The position numbers were made by a program, and so were the translations under genes. This document shows, piece after piece, positions 24,518 through 64,000 of a DNA stretch of 64,000 bases. Positions within the stretch are counted from its first letter, which is position 1. Each line of letters starts with the position of its first letter. A model generated the notes under the pieces. That model saw only the letters and a program-made list of their open reading frames with translations. It was not told the DNA's origin and made no database searches. This DNA is from Antedon mediterranea (taxonomy: Eukaryota > Animalia > Echinodermata), in assembly GCF_964355755.1 (NCBI RefSeq), contig NC_092673.1, forward strand, positions 25,045,648-25,109,647, in the 5' to 3' direction.

Positions 24518-26337
24518 CATTACTACCTTCGAGTACTATGTGGTGGACACGCTCATTATGTTAGCATAAATTCCAGAAGACGTGGAGGTAGATTGTATTA
24601 TTTTATGGTGGAAGATGGAGAATCTTTACCCGGTACAGAAGAAACGGAATATGGATAACTTGCCCAAGATCAGGTTAAACTGCAAGATGATAGGTTTTAC
24701 CTTTGAATCTTCTTTTTAATTGAAAACTACCGATATAAATAAAATGTGCATTGAGTAAAATTACCGATATAATATTAGAAAGAAGTCTATTATAGAAAAT
24801 ATTGACTAATAAATCTAAATACAAATATTATCACAAATCTGTTGTCATTGTTTTAACTCGTTCGTAGTTTAACCATGCCTCCGTCGCCTAATTGCCTATA
24901 CCAGGGAAGAGTTTAACTCTTCCCTGCCTATACTAAGTTTTGTTGTCTGACCAGTTTTATCCTTATGCTAATGTTTACTATACAAACACGTATAAGAACA
25001 TTCATTCACAAAACAGTAATGATCCAAGATAAATGGAATGCTAATAAACAAATTAATTGTCATCAATTACCTAACCTCCGGAATATCTATAACGTTTTTT
25101 GATTCATTGAAATAAACCCAATGGTTGAACTTTTTTTTAAAGACAGAATAGAACAGACACCTGAATAAAGTCATAACGAAGTACATTAGATTTGAACTCG
25201 CCACAGTTAGGACACAGTTCAATGCATTGTCGATCGAATTACGATACTGACTGACAAGTTTACGAACACATTTCTATCATTATCTATTGGTAAACACAAA
25301 AGCATCGGGCCCAACATCGATCGTTTTCTCTACTCTCGACTATTATGCTTGAACGGAAGCATTTAAAGTATTTAATAAATCAACTGAAGCCAGGATATTT
25401 TTTTATGATTACTGTTGACAACTTGTATTTACTAGTAATAAATTTAAAATCATTTACGCATGCGTCATGCCGAAATCGGGAACAGAGATTATTCGACTGA
25501 TTATTATTTTCAGAAAATATTTGGCAAATTATGCCATAGTACAACTACACCCTGGACACCCACACCTCTAGGACAAATGCCCACATACTGTTCATCGTGG
25601 TAACCATGTTATTTTATCTATTACTGATATTACTTTGTTTTTCTTTTTTGTACGAAAGAAAATCTTAAGACCGACTAGAACAACCCCACGTGAAAGCCAA
25701 CAGCGCCGCCTGTTGTTTTTGCGACCATTTTGGCCATAAACTATACTATTATATTCTAAATCGCACTCGATCGTCGACGGAACTAACATTTTTGGAGAAC
25801 AAAATGCAGTAATTTAGACCAAAAACAAAAAAAGCACTTAAATTTTGATTAATTAATGGGAACAACTCTTCAAGACGTAGAATCGTTGGAAGAATTGTAA
25901 TTTACATCGCTGCCTTTCTAGCATAGGCCAACAAAGCTAGTTGTTGTCGTGGTTTTATGCAGGATCCTTGTTATCAGTTGTATTGCAAATATGATGTAAT
26001 TGATGACTAAATAAATGTGGAATAAATGAAAATGAAATGAAATGGAAGAAATGTAATTGGCCAAGATCAGTTTCATTTTCCTGGCGTAATCTACATCGCT
26101 GCCTATCTAGCATAAGCAAACCAAGCTAGTTTTTTGTCGTAGTTTATGGCTCTAACCCAATGCTTATATGTATCATCATCACATATCTCTTGTATTTATT
26201 TTTAATAAAAGTGAAAACTCTTGAGGTAGATTTTATTTTGCCATGCACAGAAATTTACGGCGACGGCTGTACGACGAGCGCGCGCGGCGATATTTTAAAT
26301 CTCGCGATTGTTCTGAAAAGGACTGTACATCCTTAAT

Positions 26338-37451: not shown

Positions 37452-37635
37452 CATATGGGTGTCCATTTAAGAAGAAAACACTTTAGATGATGATACTTTA
37501 TTAAGAAGATGACCACCAGTATAAACAAAAATCGAATTATTCGAATGCTATATAAACGGCGAAAACATTGAGATAACTACATTAGGTTTGGGCTATATCA
37601 ATATCATTAAAAAAAGCAGAGCAACAGAAATCAAG
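37452..37635 (+). promoter_or_regulatory. Gene D promoter and non-coding exon 1
   Basis: CATATG 37452, TATATAAA 37549-37556, AAG|GTAAGA at 37636; intron to TTTCAG 38987. Confidence 0.75.
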
Positions 37636-38991: not shown

Positions 38992-41900
38992 ATGTTTTGG
39001 TTTCGGCTTGCCCTGACCGCTATTTTAGTTGTGTCGGCCTTAAGCGGCGAAACAGTGGAAAATGACAGAGAGAGAGTTAAAGAGAACGTTAACGAGGTTT
39101 CCCATCCTGAAATTTATTTGGAGAGTAAATCCGACAATCAACATGTTATCAGATTGAGTGAAAAAGAACGACCAATGGTAGTTTCCTTTCCTCAGAACAT
39201 AATTAAATCTGTCCTCCACCGCAATCGATTTAGAGTACGACATCGTCGAAGTACATACTATGGTCTCAGCTTAAGTGAAAAAGAACAAAGAGTGGCAGAT
39301 TCCCTTCCTCAGAACATAATTAAATCGGAAGGAGCTAACAAAGTATTAGCTTGTTGTAGACGTCACAGATACCACCACCACTACTACCATCACCATATCC
39401 ACCACCACCACCACTACCACATCCACCATCACCACGTTCACCACCACCACTACCACATCCACCGCCACCACCACATTCACCACCACCACTACCACTACCA
39501 CCACTATCATGTCCACCACCGCCATCGATTTAGAAGACGACGTCGTCGAAGTACATACTGTGGTCTCAGCTTAAGTGAAAAAGAACAAAGACTGGCAGAT
39601 TCCCTTCCTCAGAACATAATTAAATCTGAAGGAGCTGACAAAGTATTAGCTTGTTGTAGACGTCACAGATACCACCACTACCATCACCACCATATCCACC
39701 ACCACCACCACCACCACTATCACATTCACCACCATCACTACCACATCCATCACCACCACCACCACTATCACATCCATCACCACCACTATCACATTCACCA
39801 CCACCACTACCACCACCACTATCATGTCCACCACCCTCGTCGATTTTGTAGACGGCATCGTCGAAGTACATACTATGGTCTCAGCTTAAGTGAAAAAGAC
39901 CAAAGACTGGCAGATTCCAAAACAATTAAATCTGAAAGAGCTGACAAAGTATTAGCTTGTTGTAGACGTCACAGAGTGCATTGCAGACGATACCACCACC
40001 GACACCACATTTACCACCACTTTCACCATCACCACCACTACCACCACCGCTATCATGTCCTCCACCGCCATCGATTTAGTAGACGGCGTCGTCGAAGTAC
40101 ATATTATGGTCTCAGCTTAGGTGAAAATGAACAAAGACTGGCAGATTCACTTCCTCAGAACATAATTAAATCTGAAGGGGCTGACAAAGTATTAGCTTGT
40201 TGTAGACGTCACAGATACCACCACCACCACTACCATCACCATATCCACCACCACCACCACCACTATCACATTCACCACCACCACCACATCTACCACATCC
40301 ACTATCACCACATTCACAACCACCACTACCACATCCACCACCACGACCACCACTATCACATTCACCACCACTACCACCACCACTATCATGTCAACCGCCA
40401 TCGATGTAGAAGACGACGTCGTCGAAGTACATACTGTGGTCTCAGCTTAAGTGAAAAAGAACAAAGACTGGCATATTCCCTTCCTCAGAACATAATGAAA
40501 TCTGAAGGAGCTGACAAAGTATTAGCTTGTTGTAGACGTCACAGATACCACCACCACCACCACTACCATCACCATATCCACCACCACCACCACCACTATC
40601 ACATTCACCACCACCACTGCAACATCCACCATCACCACCACCACCACCACCACCACTATCACATCCACCACCACCACTATCACATTCACCACCACTACCA
40701 CCACCGCTATCATGTCCTCCACCACCATCGATTTAGTAGACGGCGTCGTCGAAGAACATATTATGGTCTCAGCTTAGGTGAAAAAGAACAAAGACTGGCA
40801 GATTCCCTTCTCCAGAACATAATTAAATCTGAAGAGGCTGACAAAGTATTAGCTTGTTGTAAACGTCACAGATACCACCACCACCACTACCATCACCATA
40901 TCCACCACCACCACCACCACTATCACATTCACCACCACCACCACAACTACCACATCCACTATCACCACACTCACAACCACCACTACCACATCCACCACCA
41001 CCACCACCACTATTACATTCACCACCACTACCACCACCACTATCATGTCCACCGCCATCGATTTAGAAGACGACGTCGTCGAAGTACATACTGTGGTCTC
41101 AGCTTAAATGAAAAAGAACAAAGACTGGCATATTCCCTTCCTCAGAACATAATTAAATCTGAAGAAGCTGACAAAGTTTTAGCTTGTTGTAGACGTCACA
41201 GATACCACCACCACTACTACCATCGCCATATACACCACCACCACCACTATCACATTCACCACCACCAATACCACATCCACCATATTCACCATCACCACTA
41301 CCAAATCCACCACCACCACTACCACATTCACCACCACCACTACCACCACTATCATGTCCACTACCGCCATCGATTTAGAAGACGACGTCGTCGAAGTACA
41401 TACTGTGGTCTCAGCTTAAGTGAAAAAGAACAAAGACTGGCAGATTCCCTTCCTCAGAACATAATTAAACCTGAAGGACCTGACAAAGTATTAGCTTGTT
41501 GTAGACATCACAAAGTGCATTGCAGACGATACCACCACCGCCATCATTATCACCACCACCACCACTATCACATTCACCATCACCACTACTACATCCATCA
41601 CCACATCCACCACCACCACATTCACCACCACTACCACCACCACCACTATCATGTCCACCGTCGCCATCGATTTAGAAGACGGCGTCGTCGAAGTACATAC
41701 TATGGTCTCAGCTTAAGTGAAAAAGAACAAAGATTGACAGATTCCCTTCCTCAGAACATAATTAAATCTGAAGGAGCTGACAAAGTATTAGCTTGTTGTA
41801 TATGTGGCAAAATACGTAGAATACGAAGACGACATAGAAGACGAAAAGCACGCCGTCAACGTAGAAGACGAAGACGACACTGTCAACATAGAAGACGAGT

Positions 41901-42078
41901 ATATTGGAGACACAACCATTACTACCTTCGAGTACTATGTGGTGGACACGCTCATTATGTTAGCATAAACTCCAGGAGGCGTGGTGGTAGATTGTATTAT
42001 TATTATGGTGGAAGATGGAGAATCTTTACCCGCTACAGAAGAAACGGAATATGGATAACTTGCCCAAGATCGGTTTAA
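38992..42078 (+). CDS. Gene D: secreted 1028-aa poly-His modular protein (8 His modules)
   Basis: Signal peptide MFWFRLALTAILVVSALSG; nine KVLACC spacers, eight followed by His/Tyr/Ile tracts ending in an Arg run; terminal Arg tract and one 65-aa-type domain; intact ORF. Confidence 0.9.
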   Translation: MFWFRLALTAILVVSALSGETVENDRERVKENVNEVSHPEIYLESKSDNQHVIRLSEKERPMVVSFPQNIIKSVLHRNRFRVRHRRSTYYGLSLSEKEQRVADSLPQNIIKSEGANKVLACCRRHRYHHHYYHHHIHHHHHYHIHHHHVHHHHYHIHRHHHIHHHHYHYHHYHVHHRHRFRRRRRRSTYCGLSLSEKEQRLADSLPQNIIKSEGADKVLACCRRHRYHHYHHHHIHHHHHHHYHIHHHHYHIHHHHHHYHIHHHHYHIHHHHYHHHYHVHHPRRFCRRHRRSTYYGLSLSEKDQRLADSKTIKSERADKVLACCRRHRVHCRRYHHRHHIYHHFHHHHHYHHRYHVLHRHRFSRRRRRSTYYGLSLGENEQRLADSLPQNIIKSEGADKVLACCRRHRYHHHHYHHHIHHHHHHYHIHHHHHIYHIHYHHIHNHHYHIHHHDHHYHIHHHYHHHYHVNRHRCRRRRRRSTYCGLSLSEKEQRLAYSLPQNIMKSEGADKVLACCRRHRYHHHHHYHHHIHHHHHHYHIHHHHCNIHHHHHHHHHHYHIHHHHYHIHHHYHHRYHVLHHHRFSRRRRRRTYYGLSLGEKEQRLADSLLQNIIKSEEADKVLACCKRHRYHHHHYHHHIHHHHHHYHIHHHHHNYHIHYHHTHNHHYHIHHHHHHYYIHHHYHHHYHVHRHRFRRRRRRSTYCGLSLNEKEQRLAYSLPQNIIKSEEADKVLACCRRHRYHHHYYHRHIHHHHHYHIHHHQYHIHHIHHHHYQIHHHHYHIHHHHYHHYHVHYRHRFRRRRRRSTYCGLSLSEKEQRLADSLPQNIIKPEGPDKVLACCRHHKVHCRRYHHRHHYHHHHHYHIHHHHYYIHHHIHHHHIHHHYHHHHYHVHRRHRFRRRRRRSTYYGLSLSEKEQRLTDSLPQNIIKSEGADKVLACCICGKIRRIRRRHRRRKARRQRRRRRRHCQHRRRVYWRHNHYYLRVLCGGHAHYVSINSRRRGGRLYYYYGGRWRIFTRYRRNGIWITCPRSV

Positions 42079-44508
42079 ACTGCAAGATGATAGGTTTTAC
42101 CTTTGATTCTTCTTTTTAATTTAAAACTACGGATATAAATAAAATGTGCATTGAGTAAAATTACCGATATAACATTAGAAAGAAGTCTTTTTGTCATACA
42201 AACTATTGACTAATAAATTTAAATACGAATATTATCACAAATCTTTTGTCATTGTTTTAACTCGTTCGTAGTTTAACCATGCCCCCATCACCTATTTTCC
42301 TAAGTTTTGTTGTCTGACCAGTTTTATCCTTATGCTCATGTTTACTATACAAACACGTATAAGAACATTCATTCACAAAACAGTAATGATCCAAGATAAA
42401 TGGAATGCTAATAAACAAATTAATTGTCATCAATTACCTAACCTCCGGAATATCTATAACGTTTTTTGATTCATTGAAATAAACCCAATGGTTGAACTTT
42501 TTTTTAAAGACAGAATAGAACAGACACCTGAATAAAGTCATAACAAAGTACATAAGATTTGAACTTGCCACAGTTAGGACACAGTTCAATGCATTGTCGA
42601 TCGAATTACGATACTGACTGACAAGTTTACGAACACATTTCTATCACATGTTTGGTAAACACAAAAGCATCGGGCCCAACATCGATCGTTTTCTCTACAC
42701 TCGACTATTATGCTTGAACGGAAGCATTTAAAGTATTTAATAAATCAACTGAAGCCAGGATATTTTTTTATGATTACTGTTGACAACTTGTATTTACTAG
42801 TAATAAATTTAAAATCATTTACGCATGCGTCATGCCGAAATCGGGAACAGAGATTATTCGACTGATTATTATTTTCAGAAAATATTTGGCAAATTATGCC
42901 ATAGTACAACTACACCCTGGACACCCACACCTCTAGGACAAATGCCCACATACTGTTCATCGTGGTAACCATGTTATTTTATCTATTACTGATATTACTT
43001 TGTTTTTCTTTTTTGTACGAAAGAAAATCTTAAGACCGACTAGAACAACCCCACGTGAAATCCAACAGCGCCGCCTGTTGTTTTTGCGACTATTTTGGCC
43101 ATAAACTATACTATTATATTCTAAATCGCACTCGATCGTCGACGGAACTAACATTTTTGGAGAACAAAATGCAGTAATTTAGACCAAAAACAAAAAAAGC
43201 ACTTACATTTTTATTAATTAATGGGAACAACTCTTCAAGACGTAGAATCGTTGGAAGAATTGTAATTTGCATCGCTGCCTTTCTAGCATAGGCAAACAAA
43301 GCTAGTTGTTGTCGTGGTTTTATGCAGGATCCTTGTTATCAGTTGTATTGCAAATATGATGTAATTGATGACTAAATAAATGTGGAATAAATGAAAATGA
43401 AATGAAATGGAAGAAATGTAATTGGCCAAGATCAGTTTCATTTTCCTGGCGTAATCTACATCGCTGCCTATCTAGCATAAGCAAACCAAGCTAGTTTTTT
43501 GTCGTAGTTTATGGCTCTAACCCAATGCTTATATGTATCATCATCACATATCTCTTGTATTTATTTTTAATAAAAGTGAAAACTTTTGAGGTAGATTTTA
43601 TTTTGCCATGCACAGAAATTTACGGCGACGGCTGTACGACGAGCGCGCGCGGCGATATTTTAAATCTCGCGATTGTTCTGAAATGGAATGTACATCCTTA
43701 ATTTATAAAATTATAAATAAAATATAATTTAAAAAAATTAATGAATTTATACTATCTGTTGGTCATGACCGATATCTGTTTATTTTGCTGCATTATTTCA
43801 AAGAATAATATTACTCCCTTAACTCTAATATGAAAGCAATACCAAAACGGTCTAATTAAAGATAAAAACGCTTTTTAATTTGTATTTATTTTCAAGGAAA
43901 GCAAGAATTAAAAAGATAAAATTGTTAAGAGAAAATTTTTGTTAATTGATAACGTATGTATAAACAAAAATATAAGTATAATTAATGTATAAGATTATAA
44001 AAGAAAGGAAATGTATTAATGATGACATGTATAAAAATTAATTAAAGATAAAAACGCATCTTAATTGTATTTATGAAAACATTTTTTAAAAAGAAAACAA
44101 AAATCTGTTAATTGATAACGCAGGTATAGGCCTAAAGAAAGGTATATAAGATTATAAAAGAAAGAAAATGCATTAACGTTATAAAAATTAACTAAAGATA
44201 AAAACGCATTTTAAGTTGTATTTATTTTCAAGCAAAAGTAAAAATTAAAAATATAAAAATGTTAAAAAGAAAAAAAAATTGTTAATTGATAATGTATGTA
44301 CAAAGAATACTTATACAAAGTATAATTAATATATAAGATTATAAAAGAAATGAAATGCATTGATGATGACCTAATGATGAAAATAATTATGGTGAATAAT
44401 GATAATAGGTATAGAAATAAATACAAAGATCATTAGTAATTCAAACAGATGATAACAAAAATGCAATTGTATAAATGTATATTACTGTTTTTATATGATG
44501 TTTGTATG

Positions 44509-47500
44509 TTTAACAAAAATATCGAAAGAAACACATGCGTGTTTGTTAATTTTTTGTATTATATGTGTTTGGTCATCCAATGGGTATATAAGGAGGTATT
44601 CTGTATATATGCATATATATTGAATGAAAAAACAAAAAAATATAAATAATTCTCTACATTTAATATCTCTAAATGTTAGAGGTATTAGAGAAAAGTATAA
44701 AAGGAAGAAGATATTCAATTGGTTAGATGACCAAAAGTTCGACATTGTTTTTCTACAAGAAACGCATCTTGATAAAAATGTTGTAAACTATAATAAGACG
44801 TTGTGGAAAGGCGCATCGTATCATAGTTTTGGAACGACGAAAAGTAGAGGCGTCTCAATATTTTTTAAATCAGGGTTTGATCCCAACGATATTGAGTGCA
44901 AATATAGTGATGATGAGGGTAGACTGATCATCCTTAGAGTAAAATATAATGATAAAATGTTTTACTTCTTTAACATATATGCACCCAACAATTACAAAGA
45001 AAGGTATCTCTTTTTTAATAAATTAGAAAGAAAGATTGATAACTTAAGTATTACCAATGACGAATTTATAATTATTGGAGGAGATATGAATTGTATCTTA
45101 GATAGAAAATTGGATCAGAACAATAGTGTAAATCTATATGACAGTTCACCGTCTGCTTTAAAAAAATGTATGACTAAACATAACTTAATCGATATATGGA
45201 GACATAAGAATAAAAATAAAACACAGTTTACATGGAGAAGGACAGATACATATAGAAGACTCGATTTTTGGTGCATATCGAGTTCCCTCAATAAAAATGG
45301 TGATGTTTTGTCTACAGACATTAGACCTTCGATATGCTCAGATCATCAGGCCATATCACTAAAAATATCCAATGATCAACATCAAGAAAAAAGAGGTCCA
45401 GGAGTATGGAAAATCAACAATAGTATCCTAAACGATAAAGAATACGTCCGAAAAATAAAAGGAATAATTGAAAATACAAAAAAAAATGAAAACAATCTGA
45501 GACCAGACGTGCTCTGGGAATTACTTAAAGTAAAAATAAAAGAATGTTCTGTAAAATTTTGTAAAAAAAAGAAAATGGAAAGAAATTTGGATAAAGTAAG
45601 CTTAATAAAAGAAGTCAACGAGCTTACACAAAAGCTTAATCAAGTATACGATGAAAGAATCGAAAAACAATTAATTACAAAAAGGGATAACTTAGAGAGC
45701 ATATATTTAGTTGAAGCAAAAGGTGCAATTGTCAGATCCAGAATTGATTGGTTTGAAAAAGAAGAAAAAAATAATAAATTCTTCTTAGGGTTAGAAAAGA
45801 ATAATGCTAAAAGAAAACACATTAAATCTGTTTTAAAAAGTAATGGAAAATATACATCTAACAATGATGAAATTCTGAAAGAAGAAGTTCTATTTTATAA
45901 AAACATATACTCTAATAAAGAAATACCTCTAAACGATATGAACAAATATCTAAAGCACACAAAATTAAAAACGTTGTTAGAGGAAGATGTAATAAAATGT
46001 GAAGGTCTTGTAACAGTCGAAGAATGCACAAAAACGATTTTTAAAATGAAAATAAATAAGAGTCCTGGTATTGATGGATTAAGTGTAGAATTTTATCGTA
46101 CATTTTGGGAGAATGTAAAATATTTATTGTGTGATTCATTGAATTATAGCTTAGTTAAAGGCATGTTATCAACAACACAAAGGAGAGGTATTATTAATCT
46201 TTTATACAAAAATGGACAGAGGGAAAACCTAAACAATTGGAGACCAATAACACTACTTAATGTGGATTATAAAATATTGGCTCACATTCTAGCTAATAGG
46301 TTACACAACGTTATAGGTTCCATTATAAATGAAGATCAAAAAGGTTATATTAAGAAAAGGTTTGGAGGAGAAAATGTAAGACTGGTAAACGACATACTAG
46401 ACTACACAAAAGCAAAAAGTATGACAGGTGCTATTGTTTTTCTTGATTATGCGAAAGCTTTCGACTCAATAGACAGAATACTGCTGTTTAAGGTTTTAAA
46501 ACTCTTTGGTTTTGGAAATTCATTTATCAAATGGATAAAGGTTATGTATAAAGAAACAGAATGTGTCATAGTAAACAACGGATGGTTGTCAGAAAAGTTT
46601 AAAATGGAGTGTGGTGTGAGACAAGGCTGCCCATTATCTGCTTTGCTATTTATTCTGGTATCAGAAATAATGGCAGTAAATATCAGAAATAATTCTAAAT
46701 GTATAGGAATTACGTTACCTAATAGCAATGACGATGATGATAATATCGTTAAAATTGCTCAATTAGCGGATGACACCGTAATTTTTTCACATGACGAAGG
46801 TAGTTTAAAATATTTCTTTAATGAGATTGAGTCTTTTTGTAGTGTTTCAGGGTTAACATTAAATAGAAAAAAGACAAATGGTATGTGGATTGGTGTAAAC
46901 GAAAATAGTGTTTCAAAACCATTAGATATTACATGGACTAGTGAACCTGTTAAATTTTTAGGAATCCATATAGGTTACAATAAGCATTTATGTGAAAAGA
47001 GAAACTGGGACAAAAAAATTACCAACCTAGAAAACGTATTAAATTTATGGAAAAGAAGGAATCTTACCTTTTTTGGTAAAATAACTATTATTAAAACACT
47101 TGCATTGTCTAAGTTTATATATAACGCAAGTATAATTGATGTTCCCAAAGATATAGTTAAACAAATAGAAAAATTATTATATACGTTCCTATGGGGAACC
47201 AGAAGGGAAAAGATAAAGAGAATAACCTTAATTAAAAATATTAAGGAAGGTGGTTTAAACATGCCAGATATTAGCTCTGTGGTTGAATCACTTAAACTGA
47301 ATTGGGTCAAGCGACTGTTAAGTCCAGATCCAGGTAAATGGAAATGCATACCAAAATATTTCCTTCACCCAATTGAATATACAATAAAAAGTACTAAACT
47401 TAATGTACATGATCATGCTAACTTGAGAGATATGCCTACATTCTACAAGAACATGATTAATGCTGTTGTAAAATTTAATAATATTGTGTATTCAGAACCA

Positions 47501-49098
47501 ACAACTTTAATAGAAATAAAAAATCAACAACTATGGGAAAATAAGTTTATACTATCTAACAATAAATCATTGTACTTCAAATCATGGTTATATTCTGATT
47601 ATAAAATAATTGGTGACATATTTATAAATGATAGAGTATGTACCGCAGGTGAAATAATCTCAAATTTGTATAAAAAACATAATGGTTTAATTGAATATTT
47701 ACAGCTTATGAATGCCATACCAAATGGGTGGAAAGAAATTATTAGAAAAGACAATACAAATAATCAAGATGTAGGTAATAATGACTCATTGTTGCATAAG
47801 AACATTAAAGGATCTATCTACTATAAATATTTTATAAACAAACGTTCCACTGAACCAGGTTCACAAAGAAAATGGGAATGTGAGCTAAATAACGTAGAAA
47901 TAGATTGGAATAAAGTATGGTATTATAAGGTATACAAGATGAAACATATAGTTAAAGTTGCTCAATTCAACTTTAAACTCTTACATCGAATATTACCGTG
48001 TAAAAAAAGATTAAAATTATGGAATTTGGCAGAAAATAATTTATGTGACAATTGTATAAATCAGATAGAAAGTGAACAGCACATGCTGTTTGAATGCAAT
48101 GCCATTCAATGGACATGGCACAAATTTAAAGGTGTGCTGGCTAATTGCTTTCCAGCTGAAGATAATATTACATGGTTTAAAATTGTTACAGGAACAAAAA
48201 ACAATATTGTAAATGAATTGATTTCTATGTTTTTATTCTGTATATACAAGGTACACATAATATCCAATGGTGGAAGAAAAGATAAAGATGATAAAAAAAA
48301 GATCTGGATTCTTTTCACTGCTGAAGTTAAAAATCTAATAGAAAATGAACATATGTGTAACTTCATTAAGGCACAACGTAAATGGGGTGCAAAAAAGGAA
48401 ACTCTGTTACAATTGATAGCATGAATATAATCTGTATGAAGTGTTTTTTTTTCATGTTTTCTAAAATGCAATATGTTTTGTTTATTTCCCAATTACAAAT
48501 TGTATACAGAAGTAGAAGTAGTATTATAATAAGATGTCATCGGGTATGAAGCGTCTCACATACACACAGAGCCAAAATGGCATCTTGGACTTGCACGGTG
48601 TATGGACTCTAACCTTACGGTTTTCATTTAAATATTTCATTCCACTCTATCATCCTTATCTAGTTTTCAAACTTTTGCATTCCTCTTTTTTCATCTCATC
48701 CTTTTTGTCTTGGTGAAAAGGGAGGATATTTTATATTTCTCCTCTGAGTTTATAGCCTCTCTACCAGAACATGAACAAGATTTTATAAGTACGTTTTTAA
48801 TGACAGTTCATAGACTTTTATTACCATCTTTTATCTTTATATTTTAATTAACATCTTTTTAAAATTGTAAATGAAAGCATGGTTATTATATTGAAATTAA
48901 TCATCTTTTTATGTAAATATGCCTACTTTTTAACTACTTGTTAACTTGTAACAATCTTAGTAATATACAACAGAAATAGAAATATTCATACAAATAATTA
49001 ATTGCTACAATGTACCTTTATTTTATATATAATATATATACATATAAATCTGAGAATTATAATAAAAGTGGGAAGACCCCACACAAGACAAAAAAAAA
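44509..49098 (+). mobile_element. 5'-truncated L1/Tx1-type LINE (ORF2 + 3' UTR + polyA)
   Basis: TSD ATGATGTTTGTATG at 44495-44508 and 49099-49112; empty site at ~27129; polyA after AATAAAAGTGGGAAGACCCCAC. Confidence 0.9.
44624..48424 (+). CDS. LINE ORF2: APE endonuclease + reverse transcriptase + Cys/His knuckle (L1/Tx1 group)
   Basis: SLNVRG, FLQETH, GGDMN, RLD, SDH (APE); KSPGIDG, WRPITLLNVDYKI, LDYAKAFD, GVRQGCPLS, LADD (RT); CDNC..EQHMLFEC; 1266 aa uninterrupted. Confidence 0.96.
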   Translation: MKKQKNINNSLHLISLNVRGIREKYKRKKIFNWLDDQKFDIVFLQETHLDKNVVNYNKTLWKGASYHSFGTTKSRGVSIFFKSGFDPNDIECKYSDDEGRLIILRVKYNDKMFYFFNIYAPNNYKERYLFFNKLERKIDNLSITNDEFIIIGGDMNCILDRKLDQNNSVNLYDSSPSALKKCMTKHNLIDIWRHKNKNKTQFTWRRTDTYRRLDFWCISSSLNKNGDVLSTDIRPSICSDHQAISLKISNDQHQEKRGPGVWKINNSILNDKEYVRKIKGIIENTKKNENNLRPDVLWELLKVKIKECSVKFCKKKKMERNLDKVSLIKEVNELTQKLNQVYDERIEKQLITKRDNLESIYLVEAKGAIVRSRIDWFEKEEKNNKFFLGLEKNNAKRKHIKSVLKSNGKYTSNNDEILKEEVLFYKNIYSNKEIPLNDMNKYLKHTKLKTLLEEDVIKCEGLVTVEECTKTIFKMKINKSPGIDGLSVEFYRTFWENVKYLLCDSLNYSLVKGMLSTTQRRGIINLLYKNGQRENLNNWRPITLLNVDYKILAHILANRLHNVIGSIINEDQKGYIKKRFGGENVRLVNDILDYTKAKSMTGAIVFLDYAKAFDSIDRILLFKVLKLFGFGNSFIKWIKVMYKETECVIVNNGWLSEKFKMECGVRQGCPLSALLFILVSEIMAVNIRNNSKCIGITLPNSNDDDDNIVKIAQLADDTVIFSHDEGSLKYFFNEIESFCSVSGLTLNRKKTNGMWIGVNENSVSKPLDITWTSEPVKFLGIHIGYNKHLCEKRNWDKKITNLENVLNLWKRRNLTFFGKITIIKTLALSKFIYNASIIDVPKDIVKQIEKLLYTFLWGTRREKIKRITLIKNIKEGGLNMPDISSVVESLKLNWVKRLLSPDPGKWKCIPKYFLHPIEYTIKSTKLNVHDHANLRDMPTFYKNMINAVVKFNNIVYSEPTTLIEIKNQQLWENKFILSNNKSLYFKSWLYSDYKIIGDIFINDRVCTAGEIISNLYKKHNGLIEYLQLMNAIPNGWKEIIRKDNTNNQDVGNNDSLLHKNIKGSIYYKYFINKRSTEPGSQRKWECELNNVEIDWNKVWYYKVYKMKHIVKVAQFNFKLLHRILPCKKRLKLWNLAENNLCDNCINQIESEQHMLFECNAIQWTWHKFKGVLANCFPAEDNITWFKIVTGTKNNIVNELISMFLFCIYKVHIISNGGRKDKDDKKKIWILFTAEVKNLIENEHMCNFIKAQRKWGAKKETLLQLIA

Positions 49099-49150
49099 AT
49101 GATGTTTGTATGAAATAAAAGTGGGATGCTCCCACATAAAGAAAAAAAAA

Positions 49151-49825
49151 TGTACATCCTTAATACGTTGTTAAAATATGGTTCTCGGTCCAGTTGTCCT
49201 TTAACATGATTTCGTTACATGATGATGACATGAATTAGAAGATGGTGTAATATATAAGCATGTAAATGAAATGGTATGTACATCCCTAATACGTTGTTAA
49301 AATGTGGTTCTCGGTCAAGTTTTTTTTCAACATTATTTCGTTAAATATATCCCAGAAATGATGACATGAATTAGGAGATGGTGTAATATATAAGCATGTA
49401 AATAAAATGGTATGTACATCACTAATACGTTGTTAAAATGTGGTTCTCGGTCAAGTTTTCCTTCAACATTATTTCGTTAAATATATCCCAGAAATGATGA
49501 CATGAATTAGGAGATGGTGTAATATATAAGCATGTAAATAAAATGGTATGTACATCACTAATACGTTGTTAAAATGTGGTTCTCGGTCAAGTTTTCCTTC
49601 AACATTATTTCGTTAAATATATCCCAGAAATGATGACATGAATTAGGAGATGGTGTAATATATAAGCATGTAAATGAACTGGTATGTAGGCCTACATCCC
49701 TAATACGTTGTTAAAATTTGGTTCTCGGTCAAGTTTTCCTTCAACATTATTTGGGTTAAATATATCCCAGAAATGATGACATGAATTAGGAGATGGTGTA
49801 ATATATAAGCATGTAAATGAAATGT
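49151..49825. repeat. 136-bp minisatellite, ~5 copies (duplicate of 34416-35020, first unit uninterrupted)
   Basis: TGTACATCCCTAATACGTTGTTAAAATGTGGTTCTCGGTCAAG... repeated. Confidence 0.9.
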
Positions 49826-52070
49826 TGTGTCAACGGTTTTTACAGGCTAGTTCGTGACTGAATGGAGACTCCACTGATAACATTTAGCTTTATTTGTATA
49901 TATAGAAAGTGTTTTAAAATAAACACCGTTATAGCGGTGTTAAATTATATAATGACCTTCCTCCTGAAATCATTGCAACCCCCTCCAGGAAAATTTTATC
50001 TCATAAAGCCAAACAATTTCTTTTGTCAAAATACGATTTATAAAATGTATTTATACCATCCTCAGCTTTTTTTTTATCACATGATCGTATGGTCTTTTTT
50101 TGCTTTTTACTTGCCCTGTCCTGTCTGTGTGTTTGTGTACGTTAATGCATTTGTAACTTTTCTTTATATCATTCATTTAGGGCTAGCTTGCCACAAAGTC
50201 TTATGATTAATATAATTTCTGTTTTTCATCTGCCGTTACTTTTTGAGTTTTGCCTTCTTCCTTCATTTTACAATTTATATTGCTGTTTATTTGTTATTTT
50301 ATTGTGGAAGAAATAAATGTTAAATTGATTTGCTTTGATTTGATTTGAAATTCAACATACTTTGAATTTTTGACACGTGTCTTCATCAGAAGAATCCAAG
50401 GAGTGAATCTCCTATGATGCTTCTGATGAAGACACGTGACATCGAAAGTTTGTTTAAAAACACTTTTTTATTCCAGTACGTATGATCTGATCGTACGAAT
50501 ATATATATAGCATTGTTTTCAGTCAAACCTAACAACCTGTTTATTAATTCATGATGCTCACATACCGCCCTCTAATAATAGCCAAAAAAGATACGTCTAC
50601 CCTAACGTCTGTCGCTTGCACCAGCATTCTTCCAACCACTGGCCACTCTCTGATATACATATCATTGATACCTGTCGGACTTGAATATACATATCACTGA
50701 TACTTTTTTTTATATTATTATTTCATTTCCAAAAATCACTGATACCTGTCGGACATTATATACATATACATGCAACCTATTTTAATATACATACTTTTCT
50801 TTTTCCTTTTTAATACAACAATATTAAAAATTATACAAGAATATCACATGATCCAGATAATCGCCTGTATTACTTCGCAGATGATATTCATTTAACACAA
50901 AAGGAGACTGTACAACGAAACATTTATATGAAAGAATCTTCCAGGCATTATCTGTTAATGCTTGGATCCCATCAGAGACGCAACACAAGGACGTAGCGCA
51001 ACGTAAGTGATGGATGGATTATTCGCTTGTTGCTTTTCATTAGGCAACTCGCTTGCGTTGCGTCTATGCCATCGCGTTGCGTCTCAAGTAAACCAACCTT
51101 AATTCCGATAGGAAACAGTTTTCCCATATTGCATTGCATTCCAAATGATGTAGTTGAAGTTTTATTTTTATTGATTTTAAAAATCTTTCTATATCAACAC
51201 TAATTTTCCGGCCACACATGTAACTTTTAGAAGCCGCCACTTCAATTTGAATTAAAATCATTCGGTATCCATTAGGTGGTACAGTGTACTTCGTTATAAC
51301 GTACGTACTTTACACAATCGTAATTATTTAACTTTTATGTTAAAAGAAGTGTTCACATCCTATCCACACACTTTAGTCACAATGTAAATAATAAATGAAA
51401 TTTAAAAAAAAATGTCACTCAATAACAAAAGTTTATGCAAACATTTTTAAAGGTTTTACGGTTTTTATGAATACGATAGGCCTACGGAAACAGTTTATAA
51501 GCAAACATAAATGTCTTATATGAAAAACACAATAAACATGACCAATGTACAGACAAAAATGTTAAAACTGAATATGATGTCCCACAAGTCCATGATACTG
51601 ATTATCTCCCATCTAACTTATGGGGCACCGTAAATCAACATAATAATAATATCCTGGATTTATATAGTGCCTAATGTTTGAAACCTCTAAGCGCTGAACC
51701 CCAGTCATTTTTTTTGGATAAAACACGTATGGAAACATACTCCCATAATACAGCTAGTAATCAGCGCAAAGCAAAGCGAGTTGGATTCGAACCTCGATCT
51801 GACGATCAGTAGCCCAACGTCCAACATTTGTTAGGTTATTTGTTGTTGTTTTTAATCGTATCTATCATTATTATTTTGCATAAATTAATAGAGAAACAAT
51901 TTAATTTCTTCTCTGTGTATAAAGATCATTATAGTAGTAAACCATTGACTACCGACAGATGTCGATAACGCAATACTATAAGGGCATACTCTTAAATAGA
52001 ATTATGTACAATCTATTGTTTTAATATTTCTATTCATACACCGATAACGAATTATAATTATACTGTACAC

Positions 52071-52254
52071 CATATGGGTGTCCATTTAAGAAGAAAACAC
52101 TTTAGATGATGATACTTTATTAAGAAGATGACCACCAGTATAAACAAAAATCGAATTATTCGAATGCTATATAAACGGCGAAAACATTGAGATAACTACA
52201 TTAGCTTTGGGCTATATCAATATCATTAAAAAAAGCAGAGCAACAGAAATCAAG
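52071..52254 (+). promoter_or_regulatory. Gene E promoter and non-coding exon 1
   Basis: CATATG 52071, TATATAAA 52168-52175, AAG|GTAAGA at 52255; intron to TTTCAG 53593. Confidence 0.75.
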
Positions 52255-53597
52255 GTAAGAATAACGACTTTTGCATAACTCTTTCGATAATTCTATTTAA
52301 TTGAATATTATCTAAGTTTGAGAGAATGTTTGTAGAGTAAACATCGACTAGGACTTTTGCCTTTCCAGCGAGAAACGTCGATTTGACTTCGTTCGCTGCG
52401 TAACAAGATATTGTATAATCACCTAAACTTTAATCTGTTGATTTCGTATCACATGCGGCTAACTATTAGTTCTGCATGTTAAAAGTTATATTTACCTTCG
52501 CTTAGGAGTTTATGTTCAATGGTTCATTACAGGCAGCTTTTTATAGAAATGTTTAGATTCTTGTGATACTTGAGGCTGGTGACTTTTGCGCGTTAAAGAC
52601 AACTTGTAGTGCCGTTTATAACTATTTCTAATCCCTAGACAAAATTGGAGAGATACACTTTTGAATGTCCTAGACTTCGACATTGATTAAAGATTGAAAA
52701 TATATCTAATTGAATAACAGTTTACTTTCGACCATCTGGTGTTAAAAAACAAATAATGTTTCGAATTCGTTGAAATCCGTTTGTTCGTACTTTTATTTTT
52801 GATATGTCCATGATATGGATATTCGTAATGCAACGCAACTTGTATTGTCTTTTAAATTGTGATTTTATTGTCATTTTCTCTCCTTTTTAAAAAGTTGAAT
52901 CAATTGAATTATTACAATTACCATAATAGTTTTTTTAGAATCGAGCATCTGAATAACTAAAAAAAGTATTTTCTAAACCTTAATTCATTATGAATATTTT
53001 AACACAATGATAAGCAACTTCGTGAATGAATTTCTTTAGCAAATTCTCGAAACTAATAAAGAACAAGGCCATATACATGGCTGCAGTCGCGTGCTCAAAT
53101 TAAAGTTAGTGTTTACCAACCAAACGACTGACCGACCGACCAACCAACCGACAGACCGACATAGTGAGCTGTAGATTCGCGTTGCATTGCGCACGCCTCC
53201 TTCAAAGGTGTACAAAATAGAAGGCCTTAAATTATGAGGACAATGAAGTTAATAAGATTTATAGAGTCGTGTTATCATTCTATATTTTAACACGCCTAAA
53301 TAGATTATTTTCATTTGATTGGACGGTTGTGGGTCACATGAAAAGACAAGTGATGTAGCACACTCGTGTAAATCATTATGTAAATCGATTAGGCCTACTA
53401 CAACTTTGTTAATTGTTGTTACACAGTGAGTGTGGGGGTCAGTGAGTGAGCATACACACGCGCGACAAGAGGGTGCTTGTCATAATATATTTTTCATATT
53501 TTCTTCATTCCACTCAAAAACAATCATTACAATATACGTTACAATTCGGTCCAATCTGTTCCCTAAAATGGTATATTTATATATTTCTTTCAGAACT

Positions 53598-56500
53598 ATG
53601 TTTTGGCTTCGGCTTGCCCTGACAGCTATTTTAGTTGTGTCGGCCTTAAGCCGCGAAACAGTGGAAAATGACAGAGAGAGAGTTAAAGAGAACGTTAACT
53701 CGGTTTCCCATCCTGAAAATTATTTGGAGAGTAAATCCGACAATCAACATGTTATCAGATTGAGTGAAAAACAACGACCAATGGTAGTTTCCTTTTCTCA
53801 GAACATAATTAAATCTGTCCTCCACCGCAATCGATTTAGAGTACGACATCGTCGAAGTACATACTATGGTCTCAGCTTAAGTGAAAAAGAACAAAGAGTG
53901 GCAGATTCCCTTACTCAGAACATAATTAAATCGGAAGGAGCTGACAAAGTATTAGCTTGTTGTAGACGTCACAGATACCACCTCCACTACTACCATCACC
54001 ATATCCACCACCACCACTACCACATCCACCATCACCACGTTCACCACCACCACTACCACATCCACCGCCACCACCACATTCACCACCACCACTACCACTA
54101 CCACCACTATCGTGTCCACCACCGCCATCGATTTAGAAGACGACGTCGTCGAAGTACATACTGTGGTCTCAGCTTAAGTGAAAAAAAACGAAGACTGGCA
54201 GATTCCCTTCCTCAGAACATAATTAAATCTGAAGGAGCTGACAAAGTATTAGCTTGTTGTAGACGTCACAGATACTACCACCACCATCACCACCATATCT
54301 ACCACCACCACCACTATCACATTCACCACCACCACTACCACATCCACCATCACCACCACCACTATCACATCCACCACCACCACTATCATATTCACCACCA
54401 CCACTACCACCACCACCACTATCATGTCCACCACCGCCGTCGATTTAGTAGATGGCGTCGTCGAAGTACATACTATGGTCTCAGCTTAAGTGAAAAAGAC
54501 CAAAGACTGGCAGATTCCAAAACAATTAAATCTGAAGGAGCTGACAAAGTATTAGCTTGTTGTAGACGTCACAGAGTGCATTGCAGACGATACCACCACC
54601 GCCATCATTATCACCACCACCACCACCACTATTACATTCACCACCACCACTACTACATCCATCACCACATTTACCACCACTATCACATTCACCACCACTA
54701 CCACCACCGCTATCATGTCTTCCACCGCCATCGATTTAGTAGACGGCGTCGTCGAAGTACATATTATGGTCTCAGCTTAGGTGAAAAAGAACAAAGACTG
54801 GCAGATTCACTTCCTCAGAACATAATTAAATCTGAAAGGGCTGACAAAGTATTAGCTTGTTGTAGACGTCACAGATACCACCACCACCACTACCATCACC
54901 ATATCCACCACCACCACCACCACTATCACATTCACCACCACCATCACAACTACAAAATCCACTATCACCACATTCACAACCACTACTACCACATCCACCA
55001 CCACCACAATCACATTCACCACCACTACCACCACCACTATCATGTCCACCGCCATCGATTTAGAAGACGACGTCGTCGAAGTACATACTGTGGTCTCAGC
55101 TTAAGTGAAAAAGAACAAAGACTGGCATATTCCCTTCCTCAGAACATAATTAAATCTGAAGGAGCTGACAAAGTATTAGCTTGTTGTAGACGTCACAGAT
55201 ACCACCACCACCACTACCATCACCATATCCACCACCACCACCACCACTATCACATTCACCACCACCACTACCACATCCACCATCACCACCACCACCAACA
55301 CCACCACCACTATCACATCCACCACCATCACTATCACATTCACCACCACTACCACCACCGCTATCATGTCCTCCACCGCCATCGATTTAGTAGACGGCGT
55401 CGTCGAAGTACATATTATGGTCTCAGCTTAGGTGAAAAAGAACAAAGACTGGCAGACTCTCTTCCCCAGAACATAATTAAATCTGAAGGGGCTGACAAAG
55501 TATTAGCTTGTTGTAGACGTCACAGAAACCACCACTACCACTACCATCACCATATCCACCACCACCACCACCACCACCATCACCACTATCACATTCACCA
55601 CCACCACCACCACAACTACCACATCCACTATCACCACATTCACAACCACCACTACCACATCCACCACCACCACTATTACATTCACCACCACTATCATGAT
55701 CACCGCCATCGATTTAGAAGACGACGTCGTCGAAGTACATACTGTGGTCTCAGCTTAAGTGAAAAAGAACAAAGACTGGCATATTCCCTTCCTCAGAACA
55801 TAATTAAATCTGAAGGAGCTGACAAAGTATTAGCTTGTTGTAGACGTCACAGATACCACCACCACCACTACCATCACCATATCCACCACCACCACCACCA
55901 CTATCACATTCACCACCACCACTACCACATCCACCATCACCACCACCACCACCACCACTATCACATCCACCACCATCACTATCACATTCACCACCACTAC
56001 CACCACCGCTATCATGTCCTCCACCGCCATCGATTTAGTAGACGGCGTCGTCGAAGTACATATTGTGGTCTCAGCTTCGGTGAAAAAGAACAAAGACTGG
56101 CAGATTCCCTTCCCCAGAACATAATTAAATCTGAAGGGGCTGACAAAGTATTAGCTTGTTGTAGACGTCACAGAAACCACCACCACCACTACCATCACCA
56201 TATCCACCACCACCACCACCACCACCACCATCACCACTATCACATTTACCACCACCACCACAACTACCACATCCACTATCACCACATTCACAACCACCAC
56301 TACCACATCCACCACCACCACTATTACATTCACCACCACTATCATGATCACCGCCATCGATTTAGAAGACGACGTCGTCGAAGTACATACTGTGGTCTCA
56401 GCTTAAATGAAAAAGAACAAAGACTGGCATATTCCCTTCCTCAGAACATAATTAAATCTGAAGGAGCTGACAAAGTTTTAGCTTGTTGTAGACGTCACAG

Positions 56501-57377
56501 ATACCACCACCACTACTACCATCGCCATATCCACCACCACCACCACTATCACATTCACCACCACCAATACCACATCCACCATATTCACCACCACCACTAC
56601 CAAATCCACCACCACCACTACCACATTCACCACCACCACTACCACCACTATCATGTCCACCACCGCCATCGATTTAGAAGACGACGTCGTCGAAGTACAT
56701 ACTGTGGTCTCAGCTTAAGTGAAAAAGAACAAAGACTGGCAGATTCCCTTCCTCAGAACATAATTAAACCTGAAGGAACTGACAAAGTATTAGCTTGTTG
56801 TAGACATCACAAAGTGCATTGCAGACGATACCACCACCGCCATCATTATCACCACCACCACCACCACTATCACATTCACCACCACCACTACTACATCCAT
56901 CACCACCTCCAACACCACCACATTCACCACCACTACCACCACCACTATCATGTCCACCGTCGCCATCGATTTAGAAGACGGCGTCGTCGAAGTACATACT
57001 ATGGTCTCAGCTTAAGTGAAAAAGAACAAAGATTGACAGATTCCCTTCCTCAGAACATAATTAAATCTGAAGGAGCTGACAAAGTATTAGCTTGTTGTAT
57101 ATGTGGAAGAATACGTAGAATACGAAGACGACATAGAAGACGAAAAGCACGCCGTCAACGTAGAAGACGAAGACGACACTGTCAACATAGAAGACAAGTA
57201 TATTGGAGACACAACCATTACTACCTTCGAGTACTATGTGGTGGACACGCTCATTATGTTAGCATAAACTCCAGGAGGCGTGGTGGTAGATTGTATTATT
57301 ATTATGGTGGAAGATGGAGAATCTTTACCCGCTACAGAAGAAACGGAATATGGATAACTTGCCCAAGATCGGGTTAA
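53598..57377 (+). CDS. Gene E: secreted 1259-aa poly-His modular protein (10 His modules)
   Basis: Close paralogue of D; eleven KVLACC spacers; intact ORF; same C-terminal domain ending ITCPRSG. Confidence 0.9.
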   Translation: MFWLRLALTAILVVSALSRETVENDRERVKENVNSVSHPENYLESKSDNQHVIRLSEKQRPMVVSFSQNIIKSVLHRNRFRVRHRRSTYYGLSLSEKEQRVADSLTQNIIKSEGADKVLACCRRHRYHLHYYHHHIHHHHYHIHHHHVHHHHYHIHRHHHIHHHHYHYHHYRVHHRHRFRRRRRRSTYCGLSLSEKKRRLADSLPQNIIKSEGADKVLACCRRHRYYHHHHHHIYHHHHYHIHHHHYHIHHHHHHYHIHHHHYHIHHHHYHHHHYHVHHRRRFSRWRRRSTYYGLSLSEKDQRLADSKTIKSEGADKVLACCRRHRVHCRRYHHRHHYHHHHHHYYIHHHHYYIHHHIYHHYHIHHHYHHRYHVFHRHRFSRRRRRSTYYGLSLGEKEQRLADSLPQNIIKSERADKVLACCRRHRYHHHHYHHHIHHHHHHYHIHHHHHNYKIHYHHIHNHYYHIHHHHNHIHHHYHHHYHVHRHRFRRRRRRSTYCGLSLSEKEQRLAYSLPQNIIKSEGADKVLACCRRHRYHHHHYHHHIHHHHHHYHIHHHHYHIHHHHHHQHHHHYHIHHHHYHIHHHYHHRYHVLHRHRFSRRRRRSTYYGLSLGEKEQRLADSLPQNIIKSEGADKVLACCRRHRNHHYHYHHHIHHHHHHHHHHYHIHHHHHHNYHIHYHHIHNHHYHIHHHHYYIHHHYHDHRHRFRRRRRRSTYCGLSLSEKEQRLAYSLPQNIIKSEGADKVLACCRRHRYHHHHYHHHIHHHHHHYHIHHHHYHIHHHHHHHHHYHIHHHHYHIHHHYHHRYHVLHRHRFSRRRRRSTYCGLSFGEKEQRLADSLPQNIIKSEGADKVLACCRRHRNHHHHYHHHIHHHHHHHHHHHYHIYHHHHNYHIHYHHIHNHHYHIHHHHYYIHHHYHDHRHRFRRRRRRSTYCGLSLNEKEQRLAYSLPQNIIKSEGADKVLACCRRHRYHHHYYHRHIHHHHHYHIHHHQYHIHHIHHHHYQIHHHHYHIHHHHYHHYHVHHRHRFRRRRRRSTYCGLSLSEKEQRLADSLPQNIIKPEGTDKVLACCRHHKVHCRRYHHRHHYHHHHHHYHIHHHHYYIHHHLQHHHIHHHYHHHYHVHRRHRFRRRRRRSTYYGLSLSEKEQRLTDSLPQNIIKSEGADKVLACCICGRIRRIRRRHRRRKARRQRRRRRRHCQHRRQVYWRHNHYYLRVLCGGHAHYVSINSRRRGGRLYYYYGGRWRIFTRYRRNGIWITCPRSG

Positions 57378-62502: not shown

Positions 62503-64000
62503 ATGTCTTGGCTTGGGCTTACCATGTTCGCTATTTTAGCTGTGTCAGCCGTAAGAGGCAGAGCAGTGAAGAGTAAATCCGAAAGTAGACCTGATATCAG
62601 CTTGAGTGAAAAAGAACATCCACTGGTTAATTTCCCTCCTCGGCAAATAATTGATTCTGAAGCCGAAAGCAGCTTGAGTGAAAAAGAACAGCCATTAGCT
62701 GATTTCCCTCCTCGGGAAATAATTGATTCTGAAGCCGAAAGCAGCTTGAGTGAAAAAGAACATCCACTGGTTAATTTCCCTCCTCGGCAAATAATTGATT
62801 CTGAAGCCGAAAGCAGCTTGAGTGAAAAAGAACAGCCATTAGCTGATTTCCCTCCTCGGGAAATAATTGATTCTGAAGCAGCCGAAAGCAGCTTGAGTGA
62901 AAAAGAACGGCCATTAGCTGATTTCCCTCCTCGGGAAATAATTGATTCTGAAGCCGAAAGCAGCTTGAGTGAAAAAGAACATCCACTGGTTAATTTCCCT
63001 CCTCGGCAAATAATTGATTCTGAAGCCGAAAGCAGCTTGAGTGAAAAAGAACAGCCATTAGCTGATTTCCCTCCTCGGGAAATAATTGATTCTGAAGCCG
63101 AAAGCAGCTTGAGTGAAAAAGAAAAGCCACTAGGTGATTTCCCTCCTCAGGAAATAATTGATTCTGAAGCTGAAAGCAGCTTGAGTGAAAACGAAGAGCC
63201 ATTAGCTGATTTCCCTCCTCAGGAAATAATTGATTCTGAAGCAGCCGAAAGCAGCTTGAGTGAAAAAGAACGGCCATTAGCTGATTTCCCTCCTCGGGAA
63301 ATAATTGATTCTGAAGCCGAAAGCAGCTTGAGTGAAAATGAAAAGCCACTAGCTGATTTCCCTCCTCGGGAAATAATTGATTCTCAAGCCGAAAGCAGCT
63401 TGAGTGAAAAAGAACAGTCACTAGCTGATTTCCCTCCTCGAGAAATAATTGATTCTGAAGCCGAAAGCAGCTTGAGTGAAAATGAAAAGCCACTAGCTGA
63501 TTTCCCTCCTCGGGAAATAATTAATTCTGAAGCCGAAAGCAGCTTGAGTGAAAAAGAACGGCCATTAGCTGATTTCCCTCCTCGGGAAATAATTGATTCT
63601 GAAGCCGAAAGCAGCTTTAGTGAAAAAGAACAACCATTAGCTGATTTCCCTCCTCGGGAAATAATTGATTCTGAAGCCGAAAGCAGCTTGAGTGAAAAAG
63701 AACAACCATTAGCTGATTTCCCTCCTCGGGAAATAATTGATTCTGAAGCCGAAAGCAGCTTGAGTGAAAAAGAACAGCCACTAACTGATTTCCCTCCTCA
63801 GGAAATAATTGATTCTGAAGCAGCCGAAAGCAGCTTGAGTGAAAAAGAACGGCCATTAGCTGATTTCCCTCCTCGAGAAATAATTGATTCTGAAGCCGAA
63901 AGCAGCTTGAGTGAAAATGAAAAGCCACTAGCTGATTTCCCTCCTCGGGAAATAATTGATTCTGAAGCCGAAAGCAGCTTGAGTGAAAAAGAACAGTCAC
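62503..64000 (+). CDS. Gene F (3'-partial): secreted protein with ~19 acidic 24-aa repeats
   Basis: Manual translation MSWLGLTMFAILAVSAVRGRAVKSKSESRPDI(SLSEKEQPLADFPPREIIDSEAES)n; 72/75-bp units; no stop seen before the window end, and the ORF track omits it. Confidence 0.88.
   Translation, partial: MSWLGLTMFAILAVSAVRGRAVKSKSESRPDISLSEKEHPLVNFPPRQIIDSEAESSLSEKEQPLADFPPREIIDSEAESSLSEKEHPLVNFPPRQIIDSEAESSLSEKEQPLADFPPREIIDSEAAESSLSEKERPLADFPPREIIDSEAESSLSEKEHPLVNFPPRQIIDSEAESSLSEKEQPLADFPPREIIDSEAESSLSEKEKPLGDFPPQEIIDSEAESSLSENEEPLADFPPQEIIDSEAAESSLSEKERPLADFPPREIIDSEAESSLSENEKPLADFPPREIIDSQAESSLSEKEQSLADFPPREIIDSEAESSLSENEKPLADFPPREIINSEAESSLSEKERPLADFPPREIIDSEAESSFSEKEQPLADFPPREIIDSEAESSLSEKEQPLADFPPREIIDSEAESSLSEKEQPLTDFPPQEIIDSEAAESSLSEKERPLADFPPREIIDSEAESSLSENEKPLADFPPREIIDSEAESSLSEKEQS

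Follow-up and report, generated by a model that had tools for sequence, protein, structure and literature searches.

In the echinoderm Antedon mediterranea, a stretch of 64,000 nucleotides (nt) on contig NC_092673.1 (positions 25,045,648 to 25,109,647 of the forward strand; hereafter the window) carries a tandem family of six genes, A to F, two of which, D and E, encode long histidine-rich chains. Each chain repeats one module, eight times in D and ten times in E, consisting of a spacer, a Cys-Cys pair (CC) mostly followed by RRHR, a His tract, and an Arg run, just as a first-pass annotation made from the letters of the sequence had described. Our tentative interpretation, to which we give a little less than an even chance, is that D and E are predicted secreted polyproteins in which a furin-type cut after each Arg run would yield pH- and metal-switched blocks of a hardening or adhesive material. 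It starts from gene structure, modules, motif placement, composition and calculated charge, all of which are observed.

Organization of genes D and E

The window is AT-rich animal DNA (GC content of the non-coding part 0.32) with eight long + strand open reading frames (ORFs), one of them in a long interspersed nuclear element (LINE). Coding exons and modules of D and E, with lengths in amino acids (aa), are as follows.

38992..42078, + strand: gene D coding exon, 1028 aa, with a predicted signal peptide, a pro-region, 8 His modules and a terminal Arg-rich plus Arg/Tyr (RY) module
39250..41691, + strand: His modules 1-8 of D, starting at 39250, 39550, 39865, 40096, 40426, 40753, 41083 and 41395
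41692..42078, + strand: terminal module of D, with spacer, CC, Arg-rich stretch and one RY (Arg/Tyr beta) unit
53598..57377, + strand: gene E coding exon, 1259 aa, with a predicted signal peptide, a pro-region, 10 His modules and a terminal module
53856-56990, + strand: His modules 1-10 of E
56991-57377, + strand: terminal module of E, whose last residue is Gly

A single frame of the six is open across D and E; the others contain 22-143 stops in D and 25-189 in E, which rules out alternative reading frames. The leader before the first module is 86 aa in both genes, and its signal-like hydrophobic stretch at residues 7-17 has a Kyte-Doolittle value of 2.56, compared to 1.65/1.59 at best elsewhere in the D/E chains, a measure of hydropathy and not the output of a dedicated signal predictor. 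At the sequence level, the secreted architecture proposed earlier is borne out.

There are nine spacers in D and eleven in E, one for each His module and one for the terminal Arg/RY module. The spacer is 34 aa long (31 aa in module 3 of each gene, giving a range of 31-34 aa) and runs into an L-A-C-C that is the same in every copy; RRHR follows the CC directly in 15 of 20 cases, and the Gly-free His/Tyr/Ile tract of 32-62 aa leads into the Arg run. His accounts for 309 residues of D (30.1%) and 396 of E (31.5%). Across the 18 modules the tracts add up to 1001 residues, of which 66% are His, 15% Tyr and 9% Ile; His runs reach 10-11, and there is no Gly among the 1073 residues of the His cores. 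Y-H-I occurs 47 times in the tracts against 8.8 +/- 2.8 in shuffled sequences, and the reverse order five times, although the copies are related and not independent. By calculation, D carries about +360 at pH 5.5 and +112 at pH 8.1, and each module drops from +41 to +7, in agreement with the large pH-dependent charge switch anticipated for the His tracts. The span first assigned to the feature, 39250..57100, begins correctly at the first STY of D, but 57100 lies inside the last, non-His module of E, and the span also covers a LINE and intergenic DNA that are outside the finding.

Convertase motifs and the Cys-Cys pair

Proprotein convertases cut after R-X-K/R-R or R-X-X-R (PMC2148113; here and below, published systems are described from the sections of the cited papers that were consulted). 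The strict form, R-X-K/R-R, stands ahead of STY or RTY at 19 of the 20 D/E module boundaries, with Ser or Thr as the next residue, so that a furin-type site at nearly every boundary holds at the level of sequence. The motif also matches elsewhere in the family, 36 times in A and 54 times in B; the residue after it is Val in 22 of 27 A matches and mixed in B, not Ser as in D and E. The first-pass annotation overlooked that Arg runs are cargo in B and hence are not necessarily cut sites.

It had also described the products as CC-capped peptides, and here the motifs point elsewhere. The CC is preceded by V-L-A in 20 of 20 cases, without a basic site, and only the minimal R-X-X-R is found after it, in 15 of 20. 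Because there is no basic site before the CC, furin alone would leave units of about 13.5 kDa beginning at STY and composed of spacer, CC and His tract, and CC-capped peptides would need an additional protease. Convertase cutting would leave the CC inside an STY-starting unit or on the spacer.

Promoter, splice and polyadenylation signals

Upstream of the two coding exons we find the following.

37547..37635, + strand: TATA box and inferred non-coding exon 1 of gene D, with a GT donor at its end; intron 37636-38987
52166..52254, + strand: TATA box and inferred non-coding exon 1 of gene E; intron 52255-53593

The identical TATA motif is present upstream of A, B, D, E and F, with the same splice donor 80-90 nt further on, an acceptor AG 5 nt ahead of the ATG, and a hydrophobic signal-like start in each of the five; AATAAA occurs soon past the stop in A, B, D and E (60 nt after the D stop and 59 nt after the E stop). 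With their open frames and their promoter, splice, signal-peptide and polyadenylation signals, D and E look like real genes. The neighboring gene C, which lacks a promoter and exon 1 and has acquired frameshifts and an insertion, illustrates decay at this locus. The conservation of promoter, donor, acceptor and signal peptide in five paralogues supports the proposed secreted polyproteins.

Duplication history and selection

Judged from their sequences, D and E are recent tandem duplicates. Their upstream flanks share 96.9% identity across 2587 nt, and the 3' flank of D is E-like to about 42300 and C-like past about 42340, a switch that would be the mark of unequal crossing-over; it is spanned without a gap by one contig of read run X1 (42132-42400, 4 differences), the single contig on which this point depends. 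The two extra modules of E are explained by the resemblance of its modules 5-6 to modules 7-8. Among read variants upstream of D, 23 of the 38 tested are E-type (38 of the 40 shown, from 206 in all), a tenuous sign of variation in copy number or alleles.

All 13 indels between the eight paired D/E modules are divisible by three, compared to one of ten in the flanks (p=1.2e-5). The whole-codon variation of the His tracts noted earlier is real, but it is weak evidence of function because CAC slippage yields the same pattern without selection. Among the 18 full-length spacers (the two 31-aa spacers were omitted), identity is 94-95% at the DNA level and 88-91% at the protein level, so that 'nearly invariant' was slightly too strong for the spacers as a whole. 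Only L-A-C-C is constant throughout, and spacer constancy is a weak sign of function since the DNA value is near the flank identity and is about what recent duplication alone would give. Better evidence comes from the non-His coding DNA, which has no indels between D and E in 1605 nt where 5.4 are expected at the flank rate, and from three deeper comparisons that suggest purifying selection by the ratio of non-synonymous to synonymous differences (pN/pS): 0.35 for the A repeats (p=0.002), 0.33 for the A-D spacer (p=0.04), and 0.39 for the A-D RY unit (p=0.04).

The six-gene family

The other members of the family are as follows.

6375..11927, + strand: paralogue A, 1850 aa, with signal, one spacer, CC, Arg/Cys stretch, about 25 RY units and a His/Ser/Gly tail; TATA at 6113
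15853..17325, + strand: paralogue B, 490 aa, with signal, two spacers, one full and one short His tract, a long poly-Arg repeat and an RY unit; TATA at 15563
19238..24660, + strand: paralogue C (broken), with TATA and exon 1 missing at the intron start, 18383, and frameshifts near 20100-20400
62503..64000, + strand, running off the window end: paralogue F, with signal and about 20 acidic 24-aa spacer copies; TATA at 61055

Signal and spacer are common to this tandem family and the cargo is swapped: Arg/Tyr beta-repeats in A, poly-Arg in B, His in D and E, and an acidic, amplified spacer in F, with C a pseudogene. The spacer precedes the Arg/Cys stretch and RY units once in A and the His and poly-Arg cargo twice in B, whereas F has some 20 copies of an acidic form; we read it as a family-wide shared pro or sorting segment, not an active peptide, a role that the first-pass annotation had missed. 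Calculated net charges are about +570 for A, +151 for B, +123 for D, +153 for E, and -85 for the first 499 aa of F; the 24-aa Glu/Asp repeats of F include 17% Ser, without poly-Ser in the 499 aa inside the window. A protamine reading is ruled out by the signal peptides.

The RY units of A form a tandem array of 23 x 195 nt encoding 65-aa Arg/Tyr/Trp repeats that are predicted to be beta, and two RY units modeled by AlphaFold2 (AF2) are all-beta (predicted local distance difference test, pLDDT, 80; predicted template modeling score, pTM, 0.45). As a predicted secreted polycation with purifying selection on its repeats, A is arguably as unusual as D and E. Gene C combines RY units, a His tract and spacers within one gene, and its last unit is interrupted by a 3.2-kb inverted-repeat element (21342-24517). 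Ser-Gly, a possible amidation signal, closes the chains of B, E and the C remnant, and D closes with Ser-Val.

Searches for relatives

For the family there is no credible match in Pfam, word searches or metagenomes, and the Atlas gave no usable match. The best E value was 0.29 in a PDB sequence search and 0.036 (Z 3.1) in a fold search with the RY unit, and nothing matched in Rfam. A hidden Markov model of the RY unit run over 1.84 billion proteins gave two matches, P0121 and P0122, which look like translated tandem DNA and were set aside. Two Pfam matches, SAF for A and Dynein_IC2 for F, reach their cut-offs solely through summed scores, no individual stretch being sufficient, and were set aside as repeat artefacts; choline-binding-repeat rows from Foldseek (E at least 0.036, TM score 0.17) and VIA results (Z at most 3.1) were likewise dismissed, although this blank result is not proof of a new fold. 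We found no paper, outside supplements and subscription journals, that appears to describe the family. It is apparently undescribed, and the blank homology is weak evidence of absence since the protein collections searched cover animals unevenly.

Proposed role and its alternatives

If D and E are cleaved material proteins, they would be co-expressed with A, B and F through the common promoter and exon 1 and stored in acidic granules, in which protonation (+41 per module at pH 5.5) may keep the His tracts in solution or let them coacervate with acidic F. Cleavage between R-R-R-R and S-T and release to about pH 8 would bring each module to about +7, at which point His could take up Zn or Cu and the Y-H-I alternation would favor beta-sheet packing, and the invariant Cys-Cys together with Tyr cross-links might lock the product. 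In keeping with this, the family combines a polycation of 1850 aa with a polyanion and with His proteins, as sandcastle-worm glue does (PMC9999432). Of the first-pass interpretation as a whole, the architecture, the boundary sites and the calculated charge switch stand, the CC-capped peptides are not supported, and the arguments from spacers and codons are weak.

Several observations weigh against such a role. One boundary is degenerate (RWRRR at E residue 290), and with Arg runs serving as cargo across the family, the motif may have arisen incidentally. The distinct spacer variants, 12 synonymous and 21 non-synonymous, give a marginal pN/pS of 0.50 (p=0.06); selection is absent when the N-terminus and last module of D are compared to those of E (1.63, p=0.74), and the signal-peptide comparisons are not significant. 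Besides the three deeper comparisons, six in all, this D-E one among them, lack significance. The AF2 model of two His modules is of low confidence (pLDDT 41). Four read runs contain no intron joints, but these runs are DNA-like, cover intergenic DNA, and are uninformative on expression. Within the window F is a pro-spacer amplified into a polyanion, but only part of the gene is present. The Gly/His repeats (GGH, GH, GHGXY) of Nvjp-1, MTP and the DgHBPs (PMC9999432), with which D and E are compared below, differ from the Gly-free D/E cores.

The same Arg runs might never be cut, leaving 130-160 kDa multiblock polymers in which they act as cation-pi or electrostatic stickers. A and B are about 30% Arg, and B would be shredded were every motif cut; the Arg run ahead of STY is similar to the linker of the RY units of A, F-R-V-R-x-T-Y, and may be inherited cargo; and the His-rich proteins of known materials are reported to be whole chains of 30-40 kDa (PMC9999432). 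The constant position of the sites in 19 of 20 modules, with Ser or Thr next, is unlike A and B, and we consider whole chains unlikely. Rather unlikely as well, if marginally less so, is a function in host defense, in which the cationic peptides would vary behind a conserved signal and pro-segment that deliver them, and D and E would release many copies of His-rich antimicrobials activated by pH or Zn. This would fit a lineage-restricted tandem family with a pseudogene and varying module number, the non-coding exon 1, the intron just ahead of the ATG and the signal/propeptide that stays constant as the cationic cargo changes, a layout like that of myticalins (PMC5577615), the existence of His-rich, pH-dependent clavanins (PMC10608444), the terminal Gly of B, E and the C remnant as a possible amidation signal, and the predicted beta-hairpins of the RY units. 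However, antimicrobial peptide precursors of the myticalin/clavanin type carry an anionic propiece that balances the cargo, and the D/E spacers are near neutral (-2 to +2, compared to 9-14 Arg/Lys per His cargo) and unable to mask +10 of Arg or +40 of His; the cargoes are low-complexity tracts of 46-77 aa, and A, with about 25 RY units without spacers in 1850 aa, is unlike peptide precursors.

Storage or detoxification of metals, with secreted His tracts and CC sequestering Zn, Cu or Ni within granules or mucus much like Helicobacter Hpn, accords with the 309 and 396 His per chain and the invariant CC. It leaves unexplained why one promoter should also serve A, B and F, whose cargo is Arg/Tyr or acidic, and we regard it as improbable. 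Least probable of all is that D and E are non-functional repeat expansions or that E is an assembly duplicate of D. The 96.9% identity of the D-E flanks and the E-type variants upstream of D (copy number may differ between individuals) would permit this, but the ORFs are intact over 3.1 and 3.8 kb with promoter and splice signals whereas C has decayed, the flank switch near 42300-42340, crossed by the X1 contig, is as unequal crossing-over predicts, and E exceeds D by two modules.

Returning to cleaved material proteins, a bolder extension, which we would call a long shot, is that the cluster is a self-assembling material kit made by module shuffling behind one promoter and pro-segment, comprising an Arg/Tyr beta-repeat polycation, a pro-segment-derived polyanion, and furin-released Gly-free His/Tyr/Ile blocks that would form Zn/Cu cross-beta fibrils at seawater pH and might be catalytic, in which case nature would have an equivalent of the designed catalytic amyloids with alternating His.

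Comparison with known systems

Precursors of apidaecin and magainin are multi-copy and share the tandem spacer-plus-peptide design of D and E, poly-His is released in the poly-His/poly-Gly peptides of vipers, and Helicobacter Hpn joins poly-His to CC pairs; none of these is known to be related to D and E in sequence, and they come from unrelated organisms.

D and E are best placed as a putative variant of the His-rich secreted material proteins. Nereis Nvjp-1, Glycera MTP and the squid DgHBPs are likewise secretory and repetitive, and the His content of Nvjp-1 and MTP is 27-40%, compared to 30-31% in D and E (PMC9999432). Nvjp-1 shifts to a beta-rich state at the pH of seawater and assembles into fibrils with Zn, and MTP phase-separates with Cu; the pH- and metal-triggered assembly of these proteins would be matched by D and E only on our interpretation (PMC9999432). 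His runs in MTP are of two at most (PMC9999432), whereas those in D and E reach 10-11; D and E are further set apart by their Tyr/Ile spacing, the CC, and a recurring spacer accompanied by furin motifs. We found no sequence homology of D or E to Nvjp-1, MTP or the DgHBPs.

Sandcastle glue pairs polycations with polyanions, and its cement proteins Pc-1 to Pc-5 are, like members of this family, polycationic and polyanionic secreted low-complexity proteins with Tyr-rich cations, and undergo a pH shift on secretion that the proposed release of D and E would match (PMC9999432, PMC12621633). Unlike Pc-1 to Pc-5, A-F are all paralogues in one tandem cluster with Arg- or His-based cations, and the polyanion, in the part of F inside the window, is a Glu/Asp-rich amplified pro-spacer but polyphosphoserine in the cement (PMC9999432, PMC12621633). 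Myticalins and clavanins share a conserved signal and pro-segment, variable cationic cargo, a non-coding first exon, a convertase site and pseudogenes, but have one short mature peptide and an anionic propeptide where D and E have 8-10 long modules and a neutral spacer (PMC5577615, PMC10608444). In designed Zn catalytic amyloids (IHIHIQI) His alternates with Ile or Tyr, as in D and E; these are synthetic heptapeptides with strict alternation, whereas D and E have short Y-H-I within His runs, and for the catalytic part of the kit the parallel is a lead only (PMC10510724).

Other elements in the window

Between D and E lies an apparently intact L1/Tx1-like LINE (44509-49099, + strand) with a 1266-aa ORF matching endonuclease, reverse transcriptase and zinc finger, a poly-A tail and a 13-nt target-site duplication; its best relatives are about 50% identical, and the sole organism named is at 43% identity. 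A 7.2-kb foldback element (27217-34376) has arms of about 3.5 kb, 96% identical, round a short center and a 6-nt flanking duplication, contains no ORF of at least 150 aa, and sits about 70 nt from the site that the LINE uses in the next unit. The element in gene C (21342-24517) is non-coding, with terminal inverted repeats of about 640 nt starting TAG and a 3-nt target duplication, and presumably resembles Academ-type transposons. Short interspersed repeats, high-copy by read depth, are located at 36206-36388 and 38459-38583, the former in the unit of D and absent from that of E. A 136-nt tandem repeat of 4.4 copies lies upstream of D (34417-35022) and E (49222-49824), with a partial copy upstream of B. 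In the non-coding window, the palindrome TAGGCCTA occurs 24 times compared to 0.75 expected, an enrichment that may be typical of echinoderm-like genomes, and CpG observed/expected is 0.94.

Implications

Should the host-defense explanation be true, the family would constitute a new family of antimicrobial peptide precursors. Jaws and beaks hardened with metal and marine glues depend centrally on His-rich proteins; those described are Gly/His chains, and a Gly-free poly-His polyprotein with cut sites would be a new design, one that would adjoin its own polycation and polyanion paralogues and could be tested with a single 105-aa module. The broken gene C, with RY units, His tract and spacers in one frame, also shows how such proteins arise.

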